Position numbers and translations under genes: made by a program. The notes beneath the pieces were generated by a model. The model saw only the letters and a list, made by a program, of their open reading frames with translations, was not told the origin of the DNA and ran no database searches. This document shows positions 2,516 through 63,447 of a stretch of DNA of 64,000 nucleotides, piece by piece. The stretch lies in assembly GCF_013122565.1 (NCBI RefSeq), contig NZ_CP053258.1, one strand, 5' to 3'. The stretch is from Escherichia coli (GTDB lineage: Bacteria; Pseudomonadota; Gammaproteobacteria; Enterobacterales; Enterobacteriaceae). Each line of letters starts with the position of its first letter. Position 1 is the stretch's first letter.

Positions 2516-4735
2516 CTAAGCGGTAACGGTTTCCTCTTCCTCTTCGTCCATCATTTTCAAATAATGTTTTTCATCACCAGTCATACGAAAAATGGTTTTT
2601 AGTTGCTCCATATATTTCTCTGGAGATATATCTCCCATGTCTGTGATATTAACTGCATCTGAATGGGAACCTCTATTAATGTATCTATAAAATGCTCTAA
2701 AATCATTATTCTTATCATCGCTAGCAAGTTTATTTAACTCTGTCTGTAATGCATCCGTTCTATGAACAAATGCGAAGTAGTATTCCAGTATATTTCTCAT
2801 GATGTTAGGTATTATAACTTTATTTACCCTTCCATCCTTCGCATCTTTTAATACTTGCCATAGGGACTGGTATTCATTCTGAATGCTCTTTTTCTCTATT
2901 TCTGTAATTATGCTATATTCATTTTTTGTTACTCGTCCAAGATAATAATCACGCTTGAATGTTCTATCTTCTTTGCTTCTAGGAGCTAATTTGATAAGTT
3001 CATGAAAGAAATAAAGGTTATGTGTGAGTATTAATGTTTTCTTTACTGCTTTGTTATTGTTGATTATTTCATGGTGAATTATTGAAGCAATATCGTACAC
3101 ATAATTTTGAGAGAGGCTGGATATTGGATCATCAATAACGATAAATACATCTCGCATATCCGTATCATTCTTATCTGTCTTACCTTTACAGCATTCCAGA
3201 AAGTAGAGAAAGGTAATTAAAGTTTTTTCACCCTCGCTAAGAGATCTGTATACATCTTTATCTGTTGTGTTTTCAGAACGTGATATAATATATTTATCAT
3301 TGCTCTCAGTGTGTTTTTTTATGCTAAAACCATAAATTCCTAATAATTTTAGACGTTGATTTATAGAATCTATGGTTGCATCAATGTTAGATATTTGATC
3401 GCGTAGCTCTTTGATCTTTTTGCTATTGTTATCTCCTTGTTCTTTTATGGTATTTAATTCAAGTTGATATTGTTCATAAATGATTTTATAGTCATTCTCA
3501 TATTTTGAGAAAGCTTCAAACTCAGCGTTGCATAATTCTCTTATTGCTCCCCATATTTTGTAACGTATAGACTTTTCACTATCCTTAAATTGTTTGACTT
3601 TAATATTTATTTCTTTAATTCTATTGTTGTACTCTGCTATATTATCAACTACCTTTGCTTCAAGGTCGCTATTGGATTCCAAAATAATAGATATAGATGG
3701 GTTATTGATTTTATCTAACATCAATTTTAAGTTTTTGTTTGCTATTTCCTCTAGTAACGCTATATGAGATGATGTTATATCTTTTTCTTTTGAGGTGATT
3801 AATTCACAAGATGAAATCTCTTGTTTTATTTTTCTTAAATTATCTATGGTAGCGGATTCATAAGACGATCTGATAATGCGTATTTGGTCAACTTTCTTGG
3901 AGTAGCTATCATCAAAGATAGATTCAATTGCTTCTAAAAATTTGTCTTTAATAGTGTCTTCTTGGCAGAATGGGCAACATGTGCCATTTAAATATAATTC
4001 CTTCCCTTTTTTCACCCAGTCAAGGTTTTGAAGTTGTTTAATTGTTTCTGACAAATAGCTATTACTTGAGTCTATAATCGGAGTGGATAAAGATTCTTTA
4101 TCTTTTTCTGAAATGATATATTTTTCTAAAGGTGTAATTGATGCAGTGAATTTATCTTTGTTCTTTAAAAGAATACTATATTCTTGAGCAAGTGACTCGA
4201 TGTTAACGTCAGTGGTTTGAGGGGCTTTTTTAACTTGCTCATAAAATGATCTCTTGCTTCCTAACTGACCTTTCATCAAGTTCTTTAAGTCAGATGATCT
4301 AAAAGGTTCTGCTTTATTCCATATTAAATCAATATATTCATTTTCTTTATTGTTTTTATCTTTAATTAAACGCTCAATAACGTTTTTTTTATCTTTGTAT
4401 TTTGTAAGTAGGTCTTGTCTTATAGCTTCTTTTTCCAACAATTCTTTTTCAATGTCAGCATTTTCCTTACTTAAAGTGAATACTCCTTTTTGCTCTTTTG
4501 CATTATAAAAATTATCCTCAACAAACTTAGTATTATAAACCAATAGGCGAAAAGTATCTATGAAAGGACATTCGCATTCTTTGTAGTCCGTGTTATTTGG
4601 ATTATAGAAATAATTAGATATGGTTGATTTTCCACAACCGTTGTGACCATAAAGTATATTAATTTTTTTTGAGAGATTAAGAGTCGTGAAGCTATCTTTC
4701 TTATAGCTGGTTATATTCTTTAATTTAAGTTCCAT
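2516..4735 (-). CDS. Candidate antiphage/abortive-infection protein: split ABC/SMC-type ATPase with coiled-coil insert, CxxC motif and C-terminal HEPN-like domain (PrrC/RloC-like architecture, inferred)
   Basis: 739-aa ORF with ATG at 4733..4735 and GAGG-type RBS upstream. Walker A GHNGCGKST at residues 30-38; K/E-rich heptad-like region about 85-495 with CCPFC at 253-257; signature-like LSEGEK at 499-504; Walker B/D-loop VFIVIDDPISSLS at 530-542; H-loop LILTHN at 568-573; Rx6H (R684..H691) in the C-terminal ~150 aa. Much more AT-rich than the flanking phage genes. Sits at the P2 old/tin position. Confidence 0.8.
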   Translation of the reverse strand: MELKLKNITSYKKDSFTTLNLSKKINILYGHNGCGKSTISNYFYNPNNTDYKECECPFIDTFRLLVYNTKFVEDNFYNAKEQKGVFTLSKENADIEKELLEKEAIRQDLLTKYKDKKNVIERLIKDKNNKENEYIDLIWNKAEPFRSSDLKNLMKGQLGSKRSFYEQVKKAPQTTDVNIESLAQEYSILLKNKDKFTASITPLEKYIISEKDKESLSTPIIDSSNSYLSETIKQLQNLDWVKKGKELYLNGTCCPFCQEDTIKDKFLEAIESIFDDSYSKKVDQIRIIRSSYESATIDNLRKIKQEISSCELITSKEKDITSSHIALLEEIANKNLKLMLDKINNPSISIILESNSDLEAKVVDNIAEYNNRIKEINIKVKQFKDSEKSIRYKIWGAIRELCNAEFEAFSKYENDYKIIYEQYQLELNTIKEQGDNNSKKIKELRDQISNIDATIDSINQRLKLLGIYGFSIKKHTESNDKYIISRSENTTDKDVYRSLSEGEKTLITFLYFLECCKGKTDKNDTDMRDVFIVIDDPISSLSQNYVYDIASIIHHEIINNNKAVKKTLILTHNLYFFHELIKLAPRSKEDRTFKRDYYLGRVTKNEYSIITEIEKKSIQNEYQSLWQVLKDAKDGRVNKVIIPNIMRNILEYYFAFVHRTDALQTELNKLASDDKNNDFRAFYRYINRGSHSDAVNITDMGDISPEKYMEQLKTIFRMTGDEKHYLKMMDEEEEETVTA

Positions 4736-20426: not shown

Positions 20427-21617
20427 ATGAGTGACTATCATCACGGCGTGCAGGTGCTGGAGATTAACGACGGCACCCGCGTCATTTCCACCGTATCCAC
20501 TGCCATTGTTGGCATGGTCTGCACGGCCAGCGATGCGGATGCGGAAACCTTCCCCCTCAATAAACCGGTGCTGATTACCAATGTGCAGAGCGCAATTGCA
20601 AAGGCCGGTAAAAAAGGCACGCTGGCGGCATCGTTGCAGGCCATCGCCGACCAGTCAAAACCGGTCACCGTTGTCGTGCGTGTGGAAGATGGCACCGGTG
20701 ACGACGAGGAAACGAAACTCGCGCAGACCGTTTCCAATATCATCGGCACCACCGACGAAAACGGTCAGTACACCGGACTGAAAGCCCTGCTGGCGGCGGA
20801 GTCGGTAACCGGTGTTAAACCGCGCATTCTCGGTGTGCCGGGACTGGACACCAAAGAGGTGGCTGTTGCACTGGCATCAGTCTGTCAGAAGCTGCGCGCT
20901 TTCGGGTATATCAGCGCATGGGGCTGTAAAACCATTTCCGAGGTGAAAGCCTACCGCCAGAATTTCAGCCAGCGTGAGCTGATGGTCATCTGGCCGGATT
21001 TCCTCGCATGGGATACGGTCACCAGTACCACCGCCACCGCGTATGCCACCGCCCGTGCGCTGGGTCTGCGCGCTAAAATCGACCAGGAGCAGGGCTGGCA
21101 TAAAACGCTGTCCAACGTTGGGGTGAACGGTGTTACCGGCATCAGCGCCTCTGTATTCTGGGATTTGCAGGAGTCCGGCACCGATGCTGACCTGCTTAAC
21201 GAGTCAGGCGTCACAACGCTGATTCGCCGTGACGGTTTCCGCTTCTGGGGTAACCGTACCTGCTCTGATGACCCGCTGTTCCTCTTTGAAAACTACACCC
21301 GCACCGCGCAGGTGCTGGCCGACACGATGGCTGAGGCGCACATGTGGGCGGTGGACAAGCCCATCACCGCAACGCTGATTCGCGACATCGTTGACGGCAT
21401 CAATGCCAAATTCCGTGAGCTGAAAACAAACGGCTATATCGTGGATGCGACCTGCTGGTTCAGCGAAGAATCCAACGATGCGGAAACCCTCAAGGCCGGA
21501 AAACTGTATATCGACTACGACTATACCCCGGTGCCTCCTCTCGAAAACCTGACCCTGCGCCAGCGTATTACCGATAAATACCTGGCAAATCTGGTCACTT
21601 CGGTTAACAGCAATTAA
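20427..21617 (+). CDS. FI: Tail sheath protein
   Basis: 396 aa, same as P2 gpFI. Confidence 0.9.
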   Translation: MSDYHHGVQVLEINDGTRVISTVSTAIVGMVCTASDADAETFPLNKPVLITNVQSAIAKAGKKGTLAASLQAIADQSKPVTVVVRVEDGTGDDEETKLAQTVSNIIGTTDENGQYTGLKALLAAESVTGVKPRILGVPGLDTKEVAVALASVCQKLRAFGYISAWGCKTISEVKAYRQNFSQRELMVIWPDFLAWDTVTSTTATAYATARALGLRAKIDQEQGWHKTLSNVGVNGVTGISASVFWDLQESGTDADLLNESGVTTLIRRDGFRFWGNRTCSDDPLFLFENYTRTAQVLADTMAEAHMWAVDKPITATLIRDIVDGINAKFRELKTNGYIVDATCWFSEESNDAETLKAGKLYIDYDYTPVPPLENLTLRQRITDKYLANLVTSVNSN

Positions 21618-27132: not shown

Positions 27133-27159
27133 AAAAAATAAGCCCGTGTAAGGGAGATT
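27133..27159. other. Prophage attR core (P2 att core)
   Basis: AAAAAATAAGCCCGTGTAAGGGAGATT, the 27-nt P2 attP/attB core from memory; it coincides with the 3' end of cyaR and marks the prophage/host junction. Confidence 0.55.
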
Positions 27160-27219
27160 ACACAGGCTAAGGAGGTGGTTCCTGGTACAGCTAGCATTTT
27201 ATGGGTTATGTTTTTCAGC
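27133..27219 (-). ncRNA. cyaR: CyaR (RyeE) Hfq-dependent sRNA
   Basis: Minus-strand sequence GCUGAAAAACAUAACCCAUAAAAUGCUAGCUGUACCAGGAACCACCUCCUUAGCCUGUGUAAUCUCCCUUACACGGGCUUAUUUUUU (87 nt) matches CyaR from memory, including the terminator hairpin; position between yegQ and ogr as in K-12. Confidence 0.75.
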
Positions 27220-27253
27220 GAAACGGATGATAACCTTAATAAATGCAGCTGTA

Positions 27254-41284: not shown

Positions 41285-41425
41285 CAGCGGGACGCTGAAA
41301 CGGGAAAGCCCCTATAAGGAAAGGGTCATGATGAAGTGGATCATCATCGTGGTGCTCTTAGTCATAAGCTTCCCGGCTTACTAAGACTACCAGGGCGGGG
41401 GAAACCCCGCTCTACCCTCACTCCT
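41285..41425 (-). ncRNA. Sib antisense RNA (antitoxin) opposite ibs copy 1; ends approximate
   Basis: In K-12 each ibs ORF lies wholly inside a ~140-nt antisense Sib RNA (established knowledge); the extent here is estimated and no promoter or terminator was mapped. Confidence 0.3.
41328..41384 (+). CDS. Ibs-family type I toxin peptide (MMKWIIIVVLLVISFPAY)
   Basis: 18-codon hydrophobic ORF with GGAAAGGG RBS-like sequence upstream; Ibs family signature MMK...ILV...ISFPAY. Confidence 0.75.
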   Translation: MMKWIIIVVLLVISFPAY

Positions 41426-41611
41426 GAAATTATGCCTTCACGATAAGATTGTCAATCCGCAGGCTTTGTAGTCTGCGATCCTGCCAGCAAATATTCTTTG
41501 CGAGTCGTTACGCAATAATCACACTGGAAACTATTTTATCCGCAAGTCAGCGATAGACTGCATACAGGGCGAAAGGAGGTAAGCCGACGATTTCAGCGGG
41601 ACGCTGAAACG

Positions 41612-41752
41612 GGAAAGCCCCTCCCGAGGAAGGGGCCTTAAATAAGGAAAGGGTCATGATGAAGATACTCATCATCGTGGTGCTCTTAGTGATTAGCTAC
41701 CCAGCATACTAAGACTACCAGGGCGGGGGAAACCCCGCTCTACCCTCACTCC
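41612..41752 (-). ncRNA. Sib antisense RNA opposite ibs copy 2; ends approximate
   Basis: As for copy 1. Confidence 0.3.
41656..41712 (+). CDS. Ibs-family type I toxin peptide (MMKILIIVVLLVISYPAY)
   Basis: Second repeat copy, same frame and context as the first. Confidence 0.75.
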   Translation: MMKILIIVVLLVISYPAY

Positions 41753-41941
41753 TGAAATTATGCCTTCACGATAAGATTGTCAATCCGCAGGCTTTGTAGT
41801 CTGCGATCCTGCCAGCAAATATTCTTTGCGAGTCGTTACGCAATAATCACAGAGGAAACTATTTTGTTCACGCGTTAGCGATAGACTGCATTCAGGGCGA
41901 AAGGAGGTAAGCCGACGATTTCAGCGGGATGCTGAAACGGG

Positions 41942-42085
41942 AAACCCTCTCCCGGAGAAGAGGGCTTTTAATAAGGAAAGGGTTATGATGAAGCACGTCA
42001 TCATACTGGTGATACTCTTAGTGATTAGCTTCCAGGCTTACTAAGAACACCAGGGGGAGGGGGAAACCTCTCCCTAACCCTCACT
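41942..42085 (-). ncRNA. Sib antisense RNA opposite ibs copy 3; ends approximate
   Basis: As for copy 1. Confidence 0.3.
41985..42044 (+). CDS. Ibs-family type I toxin peptide (MMKHVIILVILLVISFQAY)
   Basis: Third repeat copy; 19 codons; closest of the three to K-12 IbsA from memory. Confidence 0.75.
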   Translation: MMKHVIILVILLVISFQAY

Positions 42086-42264
42086 CCTGAAATTATGTCA
42101 CTCCGCCCTTAGTGTCAATCGACGGCTCTCCGTTCTTGCGAGGCGAATAGCAAAATTTTCTGCGCCGCCGGGCCTAATTCTGAAAGTTTCTTCGTTTGCT
42201 CTTATTTCATTATTGCAATCGGTATGATACCGGACCTCGATAATTCTCTAAGAAAGGATTTCTT

Positions 42265-57613: not shown

Positions 57614-58080
57614 AGTAAGTACAAAACCTATTCGTTGTATGACAAATGTCACAATTCGATCATGGATAAATCGGGGCAAAAATGCAATGTTGCAGCACTA
57701 TTTATCTCATATTATTTGAGGGTAATAACCTCACATTATCCCTGAATTAAAAGTGGTAATAATAAACATTATTTAAGAAATATCGCATGTGGAGACGCAA
57801 TATTAAATATTGTCAACCTAAAGAAACTCCTAAAAACCATATTGAATGACACTTAATATAATTCTTAAAAATAGCCAATTGCCGAATTGTTACCTTGCCT
57901 GCTATTCCGTTAGCTGTAACACTTCCTCCTGCATTATTGGAGAGCCAATATTCAATTACCATAATGTCACCTTATATTCGGAAGTTAATTTCCGCAATAA
58001 CCCTTTCTCATCAACGATTGTATGCAGAGAGGGTTTGAAAAATTAAGCTAAATCAGTGTATTGGTAGCTAAAAAGCCAGG

Positions 58081-58092
58081 GGCGGTAGCGTG
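58081..58092 (+). promoter_or_regulatory. ops / JUMPstart element upstream of the colanic acid (wza) operon
   Basis: GGCGGTAGCGTG, the ops consensus, about 180 bp upstream of the wza start in the untranslated leader. Confidence 0.6.
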
Positions 58093-58270
58093 TCTGGATG
58101 CCTGAAAGACCAGTCTGAATTATTCTGTCAATAGCCTGCGGATGAAATCAATTTTTTTAGGACTGATGCCAGTTAAATTTTTATTCAATTAACTGCAAGG
58201 TAAATGTGCATGGCGACATTGCTATTAATAGTGCACAGGATAATTACTCTGCCAAAGTGATAAATAAACA

Positions 58271-59410
58271 ATGATGAAATCCAAAATGAAATTGATGCCA
58301 TTATTGGTGTCAGTAACCTTGATAAGCGGTTGCACAGTACTTCCGGGCAGCAATATGTCGACGATGGGGAAAGACGTCATCAAACAGCAGGACGCTGATT
58401 TCGATCTCGACAAAATGGTGAATGTTTATCCGCTGACCCCGCGCCTGATTGACCAATTACGCCCACGACCCAACGTAGCGCGCCCCAATATGACGCTGGA
58501 AAGCGAGATCGCGAATTACCAGTATCGCGTCGGGCCGGGGGACGTTCTTAATGTCACCGTCTGGGATCACCCGGAACTCACCACGCCAGCCGGTCAGTAC
58601 CGCAGCTCCAGCGACACCGGCAACTGGGTACAGCCTGACGGCACTATGTTTTACCCGTATATCGGCAAGGTCCACGTAGTCGGGAAAACGCTCGCTGAAA
58701 TCCGCAGTGATATTACCGGGCGCTTAGCGACGTACATCGCTGACCCGCAGGTGGACGTTAATATCGCCGCCTTCCGCTCACAAAAGGCCTATATCTCAGG
58801 TCAGGTGAATAAATCTGGTCAACAGGCGATCACCAACGTACCACTGACCATTCTCGACGCCATCAACGCCGCAGGTGGCCTGACCGACACCGCTGACTGG
58901 CGCAACGTGGTGCTAACACACAATGGTCGTGAAGAGCGCATTTCTTTGCAGGCGCTGATGCAAAACGGCGACCTCAACCAGAATCGCCTGCTTTACCCCG
59001 GCGATATTCTCTACGTGCCACGTAATGATGATCTGAAAGTATTTGTGATGGGTGAAGTGAAGAAACAGAGCACCCTGAAAATGGACTTTAGCGGCATGAC
59101 CCTGACTGAAGCTCTGGGCAATGCCGAAGGTATCGACATGACCACCTCCAACGCCAGCGGTATCTTTGTCATTCGTCCGTTGAAAGGCGAGGGCGGGCGT
59201 AACGGCAAGATTGCCAATATCTACCAGCTGGATATGTCCGATGCCACGTCGCTGGTGATGGCGACAGAATTCCGCCTGCAACCTTATGACGTGGTATATG
59301 TCACCACCGCCCCGGTTTCCCGCTGGAACCGTCTGATCAATCAGTTGCTGCCAACTATTAGCGGTGTCCGTTACATGACGGATACAGCCAGCGACATTCA
59401 TAACTGGTAA
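58271..59410 (+). CDS. wza: Outer membrane polysaccharide export lipoprotein Wza
   Basis: 379 aa; lipoprotein signal (LISGC); first gene of the colanic acid cluster. Confidence 0.95.
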
Positions 59411-59415
59411 TCGTC

Positions 59416-59859
59416 ATGTTTAACAACATCTTAGTTGTCTGTGTCGGCAATATTTGCCGCTCCCCGACGGCGGAACGCTTACTGCAACGTTATCACCCGG
59501 AGCTGAAAGTGGAGTCCGCTGGACTCGGCGCGCTGGTCGGTAAGGGCGCTGATCCTACCGCTATCAGCGTCGCCGCAGAACATCAACTGTCTCTGGAAGG
59601 TCACTGTGCCCGTCAAATCAGCCGCCGTCTGTGTCGCAACTACGACCTGATTTTGACCATGGAAAAGCGCCATATCGAACGCTTATGCGAGATGGCACCG
59701 GAGATGCGCGGCAAAGTGATGCTGTTTGGTCACTGGGATAACCAATGTGAAATCCCCGATCCGTATCGCAAAAGCCGGGAAACGTTTGCAGCGGTGTACA
59801 CATTACTTGAACGGTCTGCCCGCCAGTGGGCGCAGGCATTGAACGCAGAGCAGGTATAA
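59416..59859 (+). CDS. wzb: Low-molecular-weight protein-tyrosine phosphatase Wzb
   Basis: 147 aa; CX5R motif (VCVGNICRSP). Confidence 0.95.
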   Translation: MFNNILVVCVGNICRSPTAERLLQRYHPELKVESAGLGALVGKGADPTAISVAAEHQLSLEGHCARQISRRLCRNYDLILTMEKRHIERLCEMAPEMRGKVMLFGHWDNQCEIPDPYRKSRETFAAVYTLLERSARQWAQALNAEQV

Positions 59860-59861
59860 GA

Positions 59862-62024
59862 ATGACAGAAAAAGTAAAACAACATGCCGCTCCGGTAACG
59901 GGCAGTGATGAAATCGATATTGGTCGCCTGGTCGGCACCGTCATTGAAGCGCGCTGGTGGGTGATTGGCATCACCGCTGTATTCGCCCTTTGTGCCGTGG
60001 TTTACACCTTCTTCGCCACGCCGATTTATAGTGCCGACGCACTGGTACAAATCGAGCAAAGCAGCGGCAATTCGTTAGTGCAGGATATCGGATCGGCGTT
60101 AGCCAACAAACCGCCTGCATCGGACGCCGAGATCCAGTTGATTCGTTCGCGCCTGGTGCTTGGTAAAACGGTGGACGATCTCGACCTCGATATTGCGGTG
60201 AGCAAAAACACGTTCCCGATTTTCGGGGCGGGCTGGGATCGCCTGATGGGGCGTCAGAACGAGACGGTGAAAGTGACTACCTTTAACCGCCCGAAAGAGA
60301 TGGCGGACCAGGTGTTTACGCTTAATGTGCTGGACAATAAAAACTACACCCTGAGCAGCGATGGCGGCTTTAGTGCCCGTGGGCAAGCGGGCCAGATGCT
60401 GAAAAAAGAAGGCGTCACGCTGATGGTTGAAGCCATTCACGCCAGCCCGGGCAGTGAGTTTACCGTCACCAAATACTCCACGCTGGGGATGATCAACCAA
60501 CTGCAAAACAGCCTGACGGTAACGGAGAACGGCAAAGACGCAGGCGTACTGAGCCTGACTTATACCGGTGAAGATCGCGAACAGATCCGCGACATTCTTA
60601 ACAGCATCGCTCGTAACTATCAGGAACAAAATATTGAGCGCAAATCGGCGGAAGCGTCGAAAAGCCTCGCTTTCCTCGCGCAACAGTTACCGGAAGTACG
60701 CAGCCGCCTTGATGTTGCCGAAAACAAACTGAATGCCTTCCGTCAGGATAAAGATTCTGTTGATCTGCCGCTGGAAGCGAAAGCGGTGCTCGATTCGATG
60801 GTGAACATCGACGCACAGTTGAACGAACTGACCTTTAAAGAAGCGGAAATCTCCAAGCTGTTCACCAAAGTTCATCCGGCGTACCGCACGCTGTTGGAGA
60901 AACGTCAGGCGCTGGAAGACGAAAAAGCCAAACTTAACGGTCGCGTAACGGCGATGCCGAAAACCCAGCAGGAAATTGTCCGTCTGACCCGCGATGTCGA
61001 GTCTGGTCAACAGGTCTATATGCAACTGCTGAATAAAGAGCAAGAGCTGAAAATCACCGAAGCCAGCACCGTCGGCGATGTGCGCATTGTTGACCCGGCA
61101 ATCACCCAGCCTGGCGTGCTAAAACCGAAGAAAGGGCTGATTATCCTTGGGGCGATTATCCTCGGCCTGATGCTTTCTATCGTGGGTGTACTGCTGCGCT
61201 CGTTGTTTAATCGCGGTATTGAAAGCCCGCAAGTGCTGGAAGAACACGGAATCAGCGTCTATGCCAGCATCCCGCTGTCGGAATGGCAGAAAGCGCGCGA
61301 TAGCGTCAAAACCATCAAAGGGATTAAACGCTATAAACAGAGCCAGCTACTGGCGGTGGGGAATCCAACCGATCTGGCGATTGAAGCCATCCGCAGTCTG
61401 CGTACCAGTTTGCACTTCGCGATGATGCAGGCGCAGAACAATGTGTTGATGATGACCGGGGTTAGCCCGTCAATCGGTAAAACCTTTGTCTGCGCCAACC
61501 TGGCGGCGGTGATCAGCCAGACCAATAAACGCGTGTTGTTGATCGACTGCGATATGCGCAAAGGCTACACCCACGAGCTGTTGGGCACCAATAACGTCAA
61601 TGGGCTGTCGGAAATTCTGATTGGTCAGGGCGATATTACTACCGCTGCTAAACCGACCTCTATTGCCAAATTTGACCTGATCCCGCGCGGTCAGGTACCG
61701 CCAAATCCTTCTGAACTGTTGATGAGCGAACGCTTTGCCGAACTGGTGAACTGGGCGAGTAAAAACTACGACCTGGTGTTGATTGATACGCCGCCGATTC
61801 TGGCAGTGACCGATGCGGCAATTGTTGGTCGTCATGTCGGAACGACGTTAATGGTGGCGCGTTATGCGGTCAACACATTGAAAGAAGTGGAAACCAGTCT
61901 GAGCCGCTTTGAGCAAAATGGTATTCCGGTGAAAGGGGTGATTCTGAACTCCATCTTCCGCCGCGCCAGCGCGTATCAGGATTATGGCTATTACGAATAC
62001 GAATATAAGTCGGATGCGAAATAA
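59862..62024 (+). CDS. wzc: Tyrosine autokinase / polysaccharide co-polymerase Wzc
   Basis: Start MTEKVKQHAAP gives 720 aa as in K-12; Walker A (SPSIGKTF); C-terminal tyrosine-rich tail (YQDYGYYEYEY); the track ORF extends to 59826. Confidence 0.95.
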   Translation: MTEKVKQHAAPVTGSDEIDIGRLVGTVIEARWWVIGITAVFALCAVVYTFFATPIYSADALVQIEQSSGNSLVQDIGSALANKPPASDAEIQLIRSRLVLGKTVDDLDLDIAVSKNTFPIFGAGWDRLMGRQNETVKVTTFNRPKEMADQVFTLNVLDNKNYTLSSDGGFSARGQAGQMLKKEGVTLMVEAIHASPGSEFTVTKYSTLGMINQLQNSLTVTENGKDAGVLSLTYTGEDREQIRDILNSIARNYQEQNIERKSAEASKSLAFLAQQLPEVRSRLDVAENKLNAFRQDKDSVDLPLEAKAVLDSMVNIDAQLNELTFKEAEISKLFTKVHPAYRTLLEKRQALEDEKAKLNGRVTAMPKTQQEIVRLTRDVESGQQVYMQLLNKEQELKITEASTVGDVRIVDPAITQPGVLKPKKGLIILGAIILGLMLSIVGVLLRSLFNRGIESPQVLEEHGISVYASIPLSEWQKARDSVKTIKGIKRYKQSQLLAVGNPTDLAIEAIRSLRTSLHFAMMQAQNNVLMMTGVSPSIGKTFVCANLAAVISQTNKRVLLIDCDMRKGYTHELLGTNNVNGLSEILIGQGDITTAAKPTSIAKFDLIPRGQVPPNPSELLMSERFAELVNWASKNYDLVLIDTPPILAVTDAAIVGRHVGTTLMVARYAVNTLKEVETSLSRFEQNGIPVKGVILNSIFRRASAYQDYGYYEYEYKSDAK

Positions 62025-62116
62025 CGACGCCTGCATTCGCACCGCCCCGTAAGCCGGATAAGGCGCTCACGCCGCATCCGGCAAGCAAACCAGCTCATAA
62101 GCCGGGAGAACAACCT

Positions 62117-62956
62117 ATGAAAGACAATCCGCTGATCTCAATCTATATGCCGACCTGGAACCGCCAACAACTGGCGATTCGGGCGATAAAATCGGTCCTG
62201 CGCCAGGACTACAGTAACTGGGAGATGATCATCGTGGATGATTGCTCCACCTCCTGGGAACAACTGCAACAGTACGTCAGCGCCCTCAACGATCCGCGTA
62301 TCACTTACATTCACAACGACATTAACAGCGGGGCGTGCGCGGTACGTAACCAGGCGATTATGCTGGCGCAAGGGGAATACATCACCGGGATCGATGATGA
62401 TGATGAATGGACACCCAACCGTCTGAGCGTCTTCCTCGCCCATAAACAGCAACTGGTCACACACGCCTTTTTGTACGCTAACGACTACGTTTGCCAGGGC
62501 GAAGTCTATTCCCAACCGGCAAGTTTGCCACTGTATCCCAAATCGCCGTACTCACGCCGCCTGTTCTATAAACGCAATATCATTGGCAATCAGGTCTTTA
62601 CCTGGGCGTGGCGTTTCAAAGAGTGTTTGTTCGATACCGAACTGAAAGCGGCACAGGATTACGACATCTTCCTGCGGATGGTGGTGGAGTATGGCGAACC
62701 GTGGAAAGTGGAAGAGGCGACGCAGATCCTGCATATCAATCACGGTGAAATGCAGATCACCTCGTCACCGAAAAAATTCTCCGGATACTTCCACTTTTAC
62801 CGCAAGCACAAAGATAAATTTGACCGCGCCAGCAAAAAATATCAGCTGTTTACCCTCTACCAGATCCGCAATAAACGTATGACCTGGCGCACTTTGCTGA
62901 CGCTGCTGTCGGTGCGTAACGGCAAACGTCTGGCTGATGGTATTCGGGGGCGCTAA
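62117..62956 (+). CDS. wcaA: Colanic acid glycosyltransferase WcaA (GT2)
   Basis: 279 aa; GT2 motifs (DDCS, DDDDEW). Confidence 0.9.
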   Translation: MKDNPLISIYMPTWNRQQLAIRAIKSVLRQDYSNWEMIIVDDCSTSWEQLQQYVSALNDPRITYIHNDINSGACAVRNQAIMLAQGEYITGIDDDDEWTPNRLSVFLAHKQQLVTHAFLYANDYVCQGEVYSQPASLPLYPKSPYSRRLFYKRNIIGNQVFTWAWRFKECLFDTELKAAQDYDIFLRMVVEYGEPWKVEEATQILHINHGEMQITSSPKKFSGYFHFYRKHKDKFDRASKKYQLFTLYQIRNKRMTWRTLLTLLSVRNGKRLADGIRGR

Positions 62957-62958
62957 AG

Positions 62959-63447
62959 ATGCTGGAAGATCTGCGCGCCAACAGCTGGAGTTTACGCCCG
63001 TGCTGCATGGTTCTTGCCTATCGCGTCGCTCATTTTTGTTCGGTGTGGCGCAAAAAGAACGTCCTCAACAATATTTGGGCGGCCCCGCTGCTGGTGCTGT
63101 ATCGCATTATCACCGAATGCTTTTTCGGTTATGAAATCCAGGCTGCCGCGACCATTGGCCGCCGCTTTACTATCCATCACGGTTACGCCGTAGTGATCAA
63201 TAAAAACGTGGTTGCGGGGGATGATTTCACCATTCGCCATGGCGTCACTATCGGCAATCGTGGTGCCGATAACATGGCATGTCCACACATTGGCAACGGC
63301 GTCGAACTCGGTGCCAACGTCATTATTCTTGGTGATATCACGCTTGGTAACAACGTCACCGTGGGCGCGGGCAGCGTGGTGCTCGACTCTGTCCCGGACA
63401 ACGCGCTGGTGGTGGGAGAAAAAGCGCGAGTGAAGGTAATTAAATGA
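62959..63447 (+). CDS. wcaB: Colanic acid acetyltransferase WcaB (hexapeptide-repeat)
   Basis: 162 aa; left-handed beta-helix hexapeptide repeats. Confidence 0.9.
   Translation: MLEDLRANSWSLRPCCMVLAYRVAHFCSVWRKKNVLNNIWAAPLLVLYRIITECFFGYEIQAAATIGRRFTIHHGYAVVINKNVVAGDDFTIRHGVTIGNRGADNMACPHIGNGVELGANVIILGDITLGNNVTVGAGSVVLDSVPDNALVVGEKARVKVIK

Follow-up and report, generated by a model that had tools for sequence, protein, structure and literature searches.

The 12-mer GGCGGTAGCGTG at positions 58081 to 58092 of the window (the whole 64-kb stretch of Escherichia coli DNA that was analyzed) is a textbook ops/JUMPstart element, the RfaH loading signal in the leader of the colanic acid operon. We hold with high confidence that this site is the JUMPstart/ops of the wza-wcaM operon (formerly cps) and that control there is divided in two, with Rcs gating initiation and RfaH, acting through ops, gating completion. 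The element at wza has been known, in this same locus, since the 1990s, and nothing about it is new here; its confirmation improves the annotation of the window and adds no new biology. It would explain how an H-NS-silenced operon of about 20 genes with an AT-rich 5' end is transcribed in full once the Rcs envelope stress system switches on, which is relevant to mucoidy, biofilm formation, resistance to phage and serum, and the engineered production of colanic acid. The element and its immediate surroundings are as follows.

57614-58270, + strand: yegH-wza intergenic region, 657 nt, from the ORF map and the annotation of near-identical E. coli records
58054-58092, + strand: complete 39-nt JUMPstart (5' conserved part, small hairpin and ops), from Rfam RF01707
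58061-58079, + strand: JUMPstart hairpin, arms 58061-58065 (TTGGT) and 58075-58079 (GCCAG) with a 9-nt loop, from the Rfam consensus structure
58081-58092, + strand (nontemplate, sense for wza): ops element GGCGGTAGCGTG, an exact and unique match, the same as the ops of CFT073 rfaQ, rfb/wzx and wza

The first-pass annotation had placed an ops motif at these coordinates in a long AT-rich leader upstream of wza, and both statements were borne out. A search of the 64-kb window on both strands found GGCGGTAGCGTG at 58081-58092 on the + strand as the sole exact copy, with 0.03 copies per window expected by chance and at least one copy in 3 of 100 dinucleotide-preserving shuffles. The site was still unique in the window when one mismatch was permitted, at a chance expectation of 0.33. 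It satisfies the 12-nt ops consensus GGCGGTAGnnTG, and the motif is the one applied genome-wide by Hustmyer et al. 2022 (PMC9765446). According to the ORF map, the element is intergenic, i.e., in noncoding leader, and lies on the sense strand shared with the genes from wza to wcaB; wza starts at 58271, 190 nt past the first base of ops. The GC content of the yegH-wza region is 0.27 to 0.46, falling to 0.27 to 0.38 between 57650 and 58050, in comparison with 0.5 to 0.6 in the flanking genes.

The 12-mer is the 3' third of a complete JUMPstart. A scan of the whole window with Rfam RF01707 matched model positions 1 to 38 of 38, with a score of 57.3 bits (gathering score, 35) and an E value of 1.6e-10 for the whole window. 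The hairpin of the element, which has 5 bp (U.G, U-A, G-C, G-C, and U.G), lies directly 5' of ops. The claim that this is an RfaH-recruiting ops of the colanic acid operon thus gains support from the full JUMPstart, from its position on the sense strand, and from RfaH chromatin immunoprecipitation (ChIP) at the identical site of strain CFT073, which is described below.

For comparison with known elements, eight CFT073 ops sites with an RfaH ChIP-seq signal (PMC9765446) served as a reference set. Alignment with the JUMPstarts of cps, rfb and kps operons had been suggested from the outset, and in it the element of the window proved identical to that of K-12 and CFT073 wza and very close to those of rfb, rfaQ and kpsM. 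At wza of K-12 and CFT073, the 39-nt element and its flanks are the same as in the window, the distance to wza is 190 nt in each, and the order yegH / wza wzb wzc wcaA wcaB is shared. The rfb (galF-wzx) and waaQ/rfaQ JUMPstarts have the same ops, GGCGGTAGCGTG, and the same GGTAGC...GCCnGG hairpin; they score 60.0 (rfb) and 55.2 (rfaQ) bits against 57.3 for the window, all above the Rfam cutoff, and differ at variable positions only, rfaQ having a compensatory A:T stem pair unlike that of wza in the window. Their first gene follows ops by 61 to 71 nt, as opposed to 190 nt at wza, and they are constitutively transcribed and bound by RfaH in the wild type, whereas wza is silent until induced. Upstream of kps region 3 (kpsM, group 2 capsules) there is a full JUMPstart with hairpin (53.6 bits) that is bound by RfaH, but its ops is the variant GGCGGTAGCATA, with kpsM 40 nt away and the promoter about 0.8 kb upstream. 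The remaining sites, at hlyCABD, c4518, tssH and c1882, show an RfaH ChIP signal, and their ops 12-mer is the same or almost so, but they lack the JUMPstart hairpin and the 5' conserved part and have no Rfam match.

The JUMPstart stands upstream of a long surface polysaccharide cluster, of which five genes fall within the window along with a hairpin in the wzc-wcaA spacer.

58271-59410, + strand: wza, outer membrane polysaccharide export protein, first gene of the operon (NCBIfam NF011658, 729 bits)
59416-59859, + strand: wzb (NCBIfam NF007520 equivalog, 328 bits)
59862-62024, + strand: wzc, tyrosine autokinase (NCBIfam NF008568 equivalog, 1516 bits)
62053-62082, + strand: GC-rich REP-like hairpin GCCGGATAAGGCGCTCACGCCGCATCCGGC in the wzc-wcaA spacer (RNA fold)
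62117-62956, + strand: wcaA, colanic acid glycosyltransferase (NCBIfam TIGR04017 and NF007453 equivalogs)
62959-63447, + strand: wcaB, colanic acid acetyltransferase (NCBIfam NF007564 and TIGR04016 equivalogs)

All five open reading frames reach the curated NCBIfam cutoffs, wza with a subfamily model and the other four with equivalog models, and annotated matching E. coli records have the same gene order, with wcaC next after wcaB. The locus is the colanic acid operon and not a group 1 capsule locus. Group 1 capsule clusters (K30/Klebsiella cps) likewise have a JUMPstart, wza-wzb-wzc, a stem-loop attenuator and then glycosyltransferases, but in these wzi precedes wza, galF lies upstream, and expression is described as constitutive and not Rcs gated. 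The hairpin at 62053-62082 is part of a structure of -32.3 kcal/mol and is not followed by a T run; in position it corresponds to the published attenuator, a stem-loop after wzc cited in PMC2516531 and PMC3673037. The gene for RfaH itself is absent from the 64-kb window. The start of wza lacks a Shine-Dalgarno sequence, its anti-Shine-Dalgarno duplex being -1.6 kcal/mol against a window median of -2.8. The sequence CTCTGCCAAAGTGATAAATAAnCAATG that precedes wza (58245-58273, + strand) is almost invariant across five genera and has no Shine-Dalgarno sequence either, a combination that fits a start that does not depend on pairing with 16S rRNA.

The yegH-wza region takes in the side with the divergent yegH promoter, the promoter region of wza and a long untranslated leader rich in A and T. 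It was found in 4,818 of 5,426 complete E. coli genomes. Over the 658 bases that begin with the yegH start codon and end just before wza, identity is 98.2% to K-12 and 99.8% to O157:H7. The GC content of the leader, 27 to 38%, is consistent with the reported binding of H-NS. Conserved blocks on the promoter side were delimited by aligning 11 intergenic regions, drawn from five genera, with MAFFT.

57774-57787, + strand: candidate RcsAB box TAAGAAATATCGCA, with the six uppercase consensus positions kept (cross-genus alignment)
57797-57925, + strand: conserved promoter-side blocks (MAFFT alignment, 11 regions from five genera), made up of the next five entries
57810-57816, + strand: conserved block TTGTCAA (cross-genus alignment)
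57827-57835, + strand: conserved block TCCTAAAA (cross-genus alignment)
57852-57871, + strand: conserved block CTTAATAT.AATCTTAAAA (cross-genus alignment)
57893-57900, + strand: conserved block CTTGCCTG (cross-genus alignment)
57910-57923, + strand: conserved block TTAGCTGyAACA (cross-genus alignment)

Downstream of these blocks the alignment has an unconserved stretch (57937-58040), after which comes the JUMPstart; the promoter-like blocks and the RcsAB-box-like site are all upstream of ops, at a distance of 150 nt or more. Judged from their sequence conservation, the blocks at 57797-57925 are probably the wza promoter region. The site TAAGAAATATCGCA is probably an RcsAB box and thus a candidate site for the activator of initiation. 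Compared with the 14-bp RcsAB-box consensus TaAGaatatTCctA (Wehland and Bernhard 2000, in the form quoted in PMC3950696), it matches all six uppercase positions and has 5 mismatches to the full consensus. The site is kept in Citrobacter and Salmonella, and in Atlantibacter the aligned place holds TGAGGATATTCCTA, an even better RcsAB match. It was located by a degenerate half-site search together with the alignment; a search for the RcsAB consensus with up to 3 mismatches missed the region, and a literature text search for TAAGAAATATCGCA found no paper.

The only match to a sigma-70 consensus, TGGAGA-16-CATAAT (57938-57965), was not adopted as the promoter: it falls in the least conserved part of the region, is deleted in Citrobacter and is not conserved outside Escherichia. 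Literature text searches found no mapped base-resolution wza transcription start, nothing is listed near the K-12 wza coordinates, in either numbering, in a Cappable-seq supplement, and one paper that uses the RegulonDB wza promoter gives no sequence for it. The candidate starts that can be derived run from about 57843 to about 57972 and are all upstream of ops. Sigma-70 and RfaH ChIP published for the identical CFT073 locus moreover implies that the ops site is transcribed. From the candidate start positions and this published ChIP, it is unlikely that ops lies upstream of the wza transcription start. A C-rich, G-poor Rho-loading site in the leader was also considered and rejected as too weak (C, 0.18 to 0.22; G, 0.16). 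On the opposite strand, at 57814-57963 (-), many E. coli genomes have a RefSeq "hypothetical protein" of 49 amino acids (WP_162829205.1), the equivalent region of the O157:H7 locus being 3202-3351. This is probably a spurious gene call that overlaps the conserved promoter blocks.

The most direct published evidence for RfaH at wza comes from CFT073, for which Data set S2 of Hustmyer et al. 2022 gives the wza ops as GGCGGTAGCGTG on the nontemplate strand, in a UTR, 190 nt before wza (PMC9765446). In a delta-hns delta-stpA strain of CFT073, the RfaH ChIP-seq signal extended from wza to wcaL and was gone in delta-rfaH, and a sigma-70 peak was present upstream (PMC9765446). In wild-type CFT073 grown in rich medium, the operon was bound by H-NS and silent, with no RfaH signal, and was termed a "cryptic RfaH locus" by the authors (PMC9765446); the element would thus act only when initiation is induced. 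Other papers take it as settled that colanic acid transcription is under JUMPstart-RfaH antitermination, for which they cite Stout 1996 along with Hobbs and Reeves 1994; colanic acid production is also described as RfaH regulated. The title of Navasa 2014, together with papers that cite it, reports RfaH control of colanic acid synthesis and polarity. A review-type statement is more guarded and has RfaH "presumably" needed for cps, for the genes downstream of wzc. RfaH dependence in the window is put forward by analogy, from literature on other E. coli strains.

The association of the JUMPstart with wza extends beyond E. coli. Species-representative genomes were scanned with a hairpin-plus-ops pattern that was blind to neighboring genes, which gave at least 120 loci, and wza and yegH at these loci were identified by tblastn with the Wza and YegH proteins of the window. 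The invariance of ops in this cross-genus set, which was chosen by motif, holds by construction; neither the association with wza nor the constant spacing depends on how the set was chosen. Among the matches listed, the order yegH / JUMPstart / wza was present in Citrobacter, Salmonella enterica subsp. diarizonae, three Atlantibacter species, Enterobacteriaceae strain RIT691, an Enterobacter sp. and E. coli, with yegH divergent upstream in most of the JUMPstart-wza loci. At least five genera have the JUMPstart-wza leader. In 15 of the 17 short-leader loci among the matches listed (the window being additional to these), ops and the wza ATG are 188 to 192 nt apart. The exceptions are E. coli E69 (182 nt) and one C. 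amalonaticus genome (308 nt), the other C. amalonaticus genome having 189 nt. Longer distances, 415 to 441 nt, were found in Mixta, Winslowiella and Pantoea, again among the matches listed.

Taken together with RfaH biochemistry, these observations suggest the following scheme. Transcription would start at the Rcs-activated, H-NS-silenced promoter in the yegH-wza intergenic region, and RNA polymerase would then cross the long AT-rich untranslated leader until it pauses at T11 of ops (58091), with G12 (58092) as the next base. The pause-inducing context has G at -11 and -10, a pyrimidine at -1 and G at +1, with the pause at U11, and the bases G1, G2 ... T11, G12 of the element, as read from the sequence, fit this context. 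In the exposed nontemplate strand, ops would form a hairpin with the pairs G2:C9 and C3:G8 and with T6 flipped out, to be recognized by RfaH. The bases for both pairs are present at 58081-58092; nearest-neighbor folding of single-stranded ops DNA gave a different, marginal fold (-0.9 kcal/mol), a 2-nt loop being beyond the method. Having read this tiny hairpin, RfaH would stay on the polymerase in place of NusG, suppress pausing and Rho-dependent termination, and aid passage through H-NS filaments. The refolded C-terminal (KOW) domain of RfaH could in addition bring a ribosome to wza, which has no Shine-Dalgarno sequence. A polymerase modified by RfaH would therefore read through the stem-loop after wzc and reach the distal wca genes. 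The net effect would be that the start of transcription depends on Rcs, and completion of the whole operon, with its roughly 20 genes, on RfaH/ops.

It is very unlikely, in our judgment, that the element is a genuine JUMPstart by descent that has become functionally marginal, with output set almost wholly by RcsAB at initiation and RfaH adding little. The silence of the operon in wild-type cells in rich medium, the appearance of RfaH occupancy only after hns and stpA had been removed, and the guarded "presumably" of the review-type statement would suit such an element. Conservation within E. coli would suit it as well: a 61-nt JUMPstart stretch was found in 4,815 E. coli genomes and was exact in 2,643 of these, and the figures for a control stretch of the neighboring leader were 4,700 and 2,456. 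The JUMPstart is thus no better conserved than the leader around it, and within-species conservation does not discriminate between the readings. However, the JUMPstart-wza leader has been kept in at least five genera, with a spacing of 188 to 192 nt in 15 of the 17 short-leader loci among the matches listed; once the promoter fires, the RfaH signal spans the operon from wza to wcaL; and RfaH control of synthesis and polarity is reported in the title of Navasa 2014 and by the papers citing it.

Less likely again, to the point where we give it very little weight, is a role of the element mainly as leader RNA structure, in stability or translation, in place of a DNA signal for RfaH. Rfam does model JUMPstart as a cis-regulatory RNA with a 5-bp hairpin, and the sole hairpin pair left unconstrained by the search pattern covaries. 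In 106 distinct JUMPstarts among the matches listed, this pair was formed in 101, with 65.8 expected under independence, although kinship among the sequences inflates the count. The combinations were T:A in 77, A:T in 13, G:T in 8 and G:C in 3, with 5 unpaired, so that both Watson-Crick orientations occur, CFT073 rfaQ included. This covariation would fit a hairpin in the single-stranded nontemplate DNA equally well. The invariant part of the element is, moreover, the unpaired ops 12-mer and not the stem, and the hairpin-less ops sites at hly, c4518, tssH and c1882 recruit RfaH in vivo. The 5' arm of the hairpin, UUGGUAG (58061-58067), is complementary to an invariant CUGCCAA at about 58247-58253, some 20 nt before the wza start. 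RNAalifold can pair the two over 7 bp, which would suit a function in RNA, but this long-range pairing was rejected as evidence: compensatory changes are absent, and two of the sequences, from two species, break it. From ops to wza, RNAalifold found no consensus RNA structure supported by covariation.

The 8-mer core of ops, GGCGGTAG, is present in seven copies in the window, against 1.5 expected, a number reached by 1 of 100 shuffles. The six copies other than ops, at 20951, 27534, 38387, 46492, 50142 (-) and 57495 (+), all fall within long open reading frames and all lack the 3' TG. The surplus is probably an effect of codon or dipeptide composition, and intragenic ops-like sites do not recruit RfaH (PMC9765446). 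These six cores, arising by chance or codon bias within genes, are what could be said for a chance match or an inert motif in nontranscribed promoter DNA, a reading already contradicted by the evidence and practically without credence, given the 0.03 exact 12-mers expected, the E value of 1.6e-10 for the 39-nt element, the position of ops as the only intergenic copy, the conserved promoter-like blocks upstream and the loading of RfaH there in CFT073.

The leader between ops and wza contains one further conserved feature.

58166-58192, + strand: candidate mini-ORF of 8 codons, ATG CCA GTT AAA TTT TTA TTC AAT TAA (MPVKFLFN*), from its position and length across genera

This mini-ORF opens with an ATG at 58166, which is 85 nt past the start of ops, is preceded at 3 nt by AGGA and falls within the conserved leader block TTTTTAGGAnTGATGCC (about 58155-58172), conservation extending to about 58192. 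Its position (+83 to +85), its length, the Pro codon and the TAA are kept in Escherichia, Citrobacter, Salmonella diarizonae and Enterobacter BIGb0383. The variant in RIT691, MPVIFLLG*, is at +78; in Atlantibacter the ATG is one codon earlier and the reading frame longer; and in the long leaders of Mixta and one Winslowiella (W. arboricola) an ATG stands at +84. It is conceivable, although we think it unlikely, that the mini-ORF is translated and serves as the first ribosome-loading point for RfaH-modified polymerase, i.e., as a coupling reading frame between ops and wza. Its Shine-Dalgarno duplex is weak (-3.9 kcal/mol), and substitutions in the cross-genus leaders gave no clear third-position excess. 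A general rule that a first reading frame follows soon after ops was tried and rejected, as the 104 JUMPstart loci among the matches listed gave distances of 36 to 612 nt; there is thus no general spacing rule behind the idea of the mini-ORF. Alternatively, the block may be conserved as a noncoding signal in DNA or RNA.

Positions 40000-64000 of the window are at most about 97.5 to 97.7% identical to any of the 5,426 complete E. coli genomes. With this 24 kb reaching no more than about 97.7% and the yegH-wza stretch nevertheless at 99.8% to O157:H7, the lineage either is not closely represented among these genomes or is a mosaic. In O157:H7, a RelE/ParE toxin and an HTH antitoxin form a pair between asmA and yegH (725-1343 of the O157:H7 locus); in the window and in its best-matching genome, asmA and yegH are separated only by a 459-bp spacer. 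Elsewhere in the window, the small RNA CyaR (RyeE) was identified at 27136-27221 on the - strand (Rfam RF00112, 100.7 bits), and three Sib antitoxin RNAs stand in tandem at 41313-42118 on the - strand (Rfam RF00113, 141 to 150 bits). At the Sib locus, the complete E. coli genome that matches best carries just two ibs toxin genes, and over the 24 kb compared it is shorter by about 245 bp.
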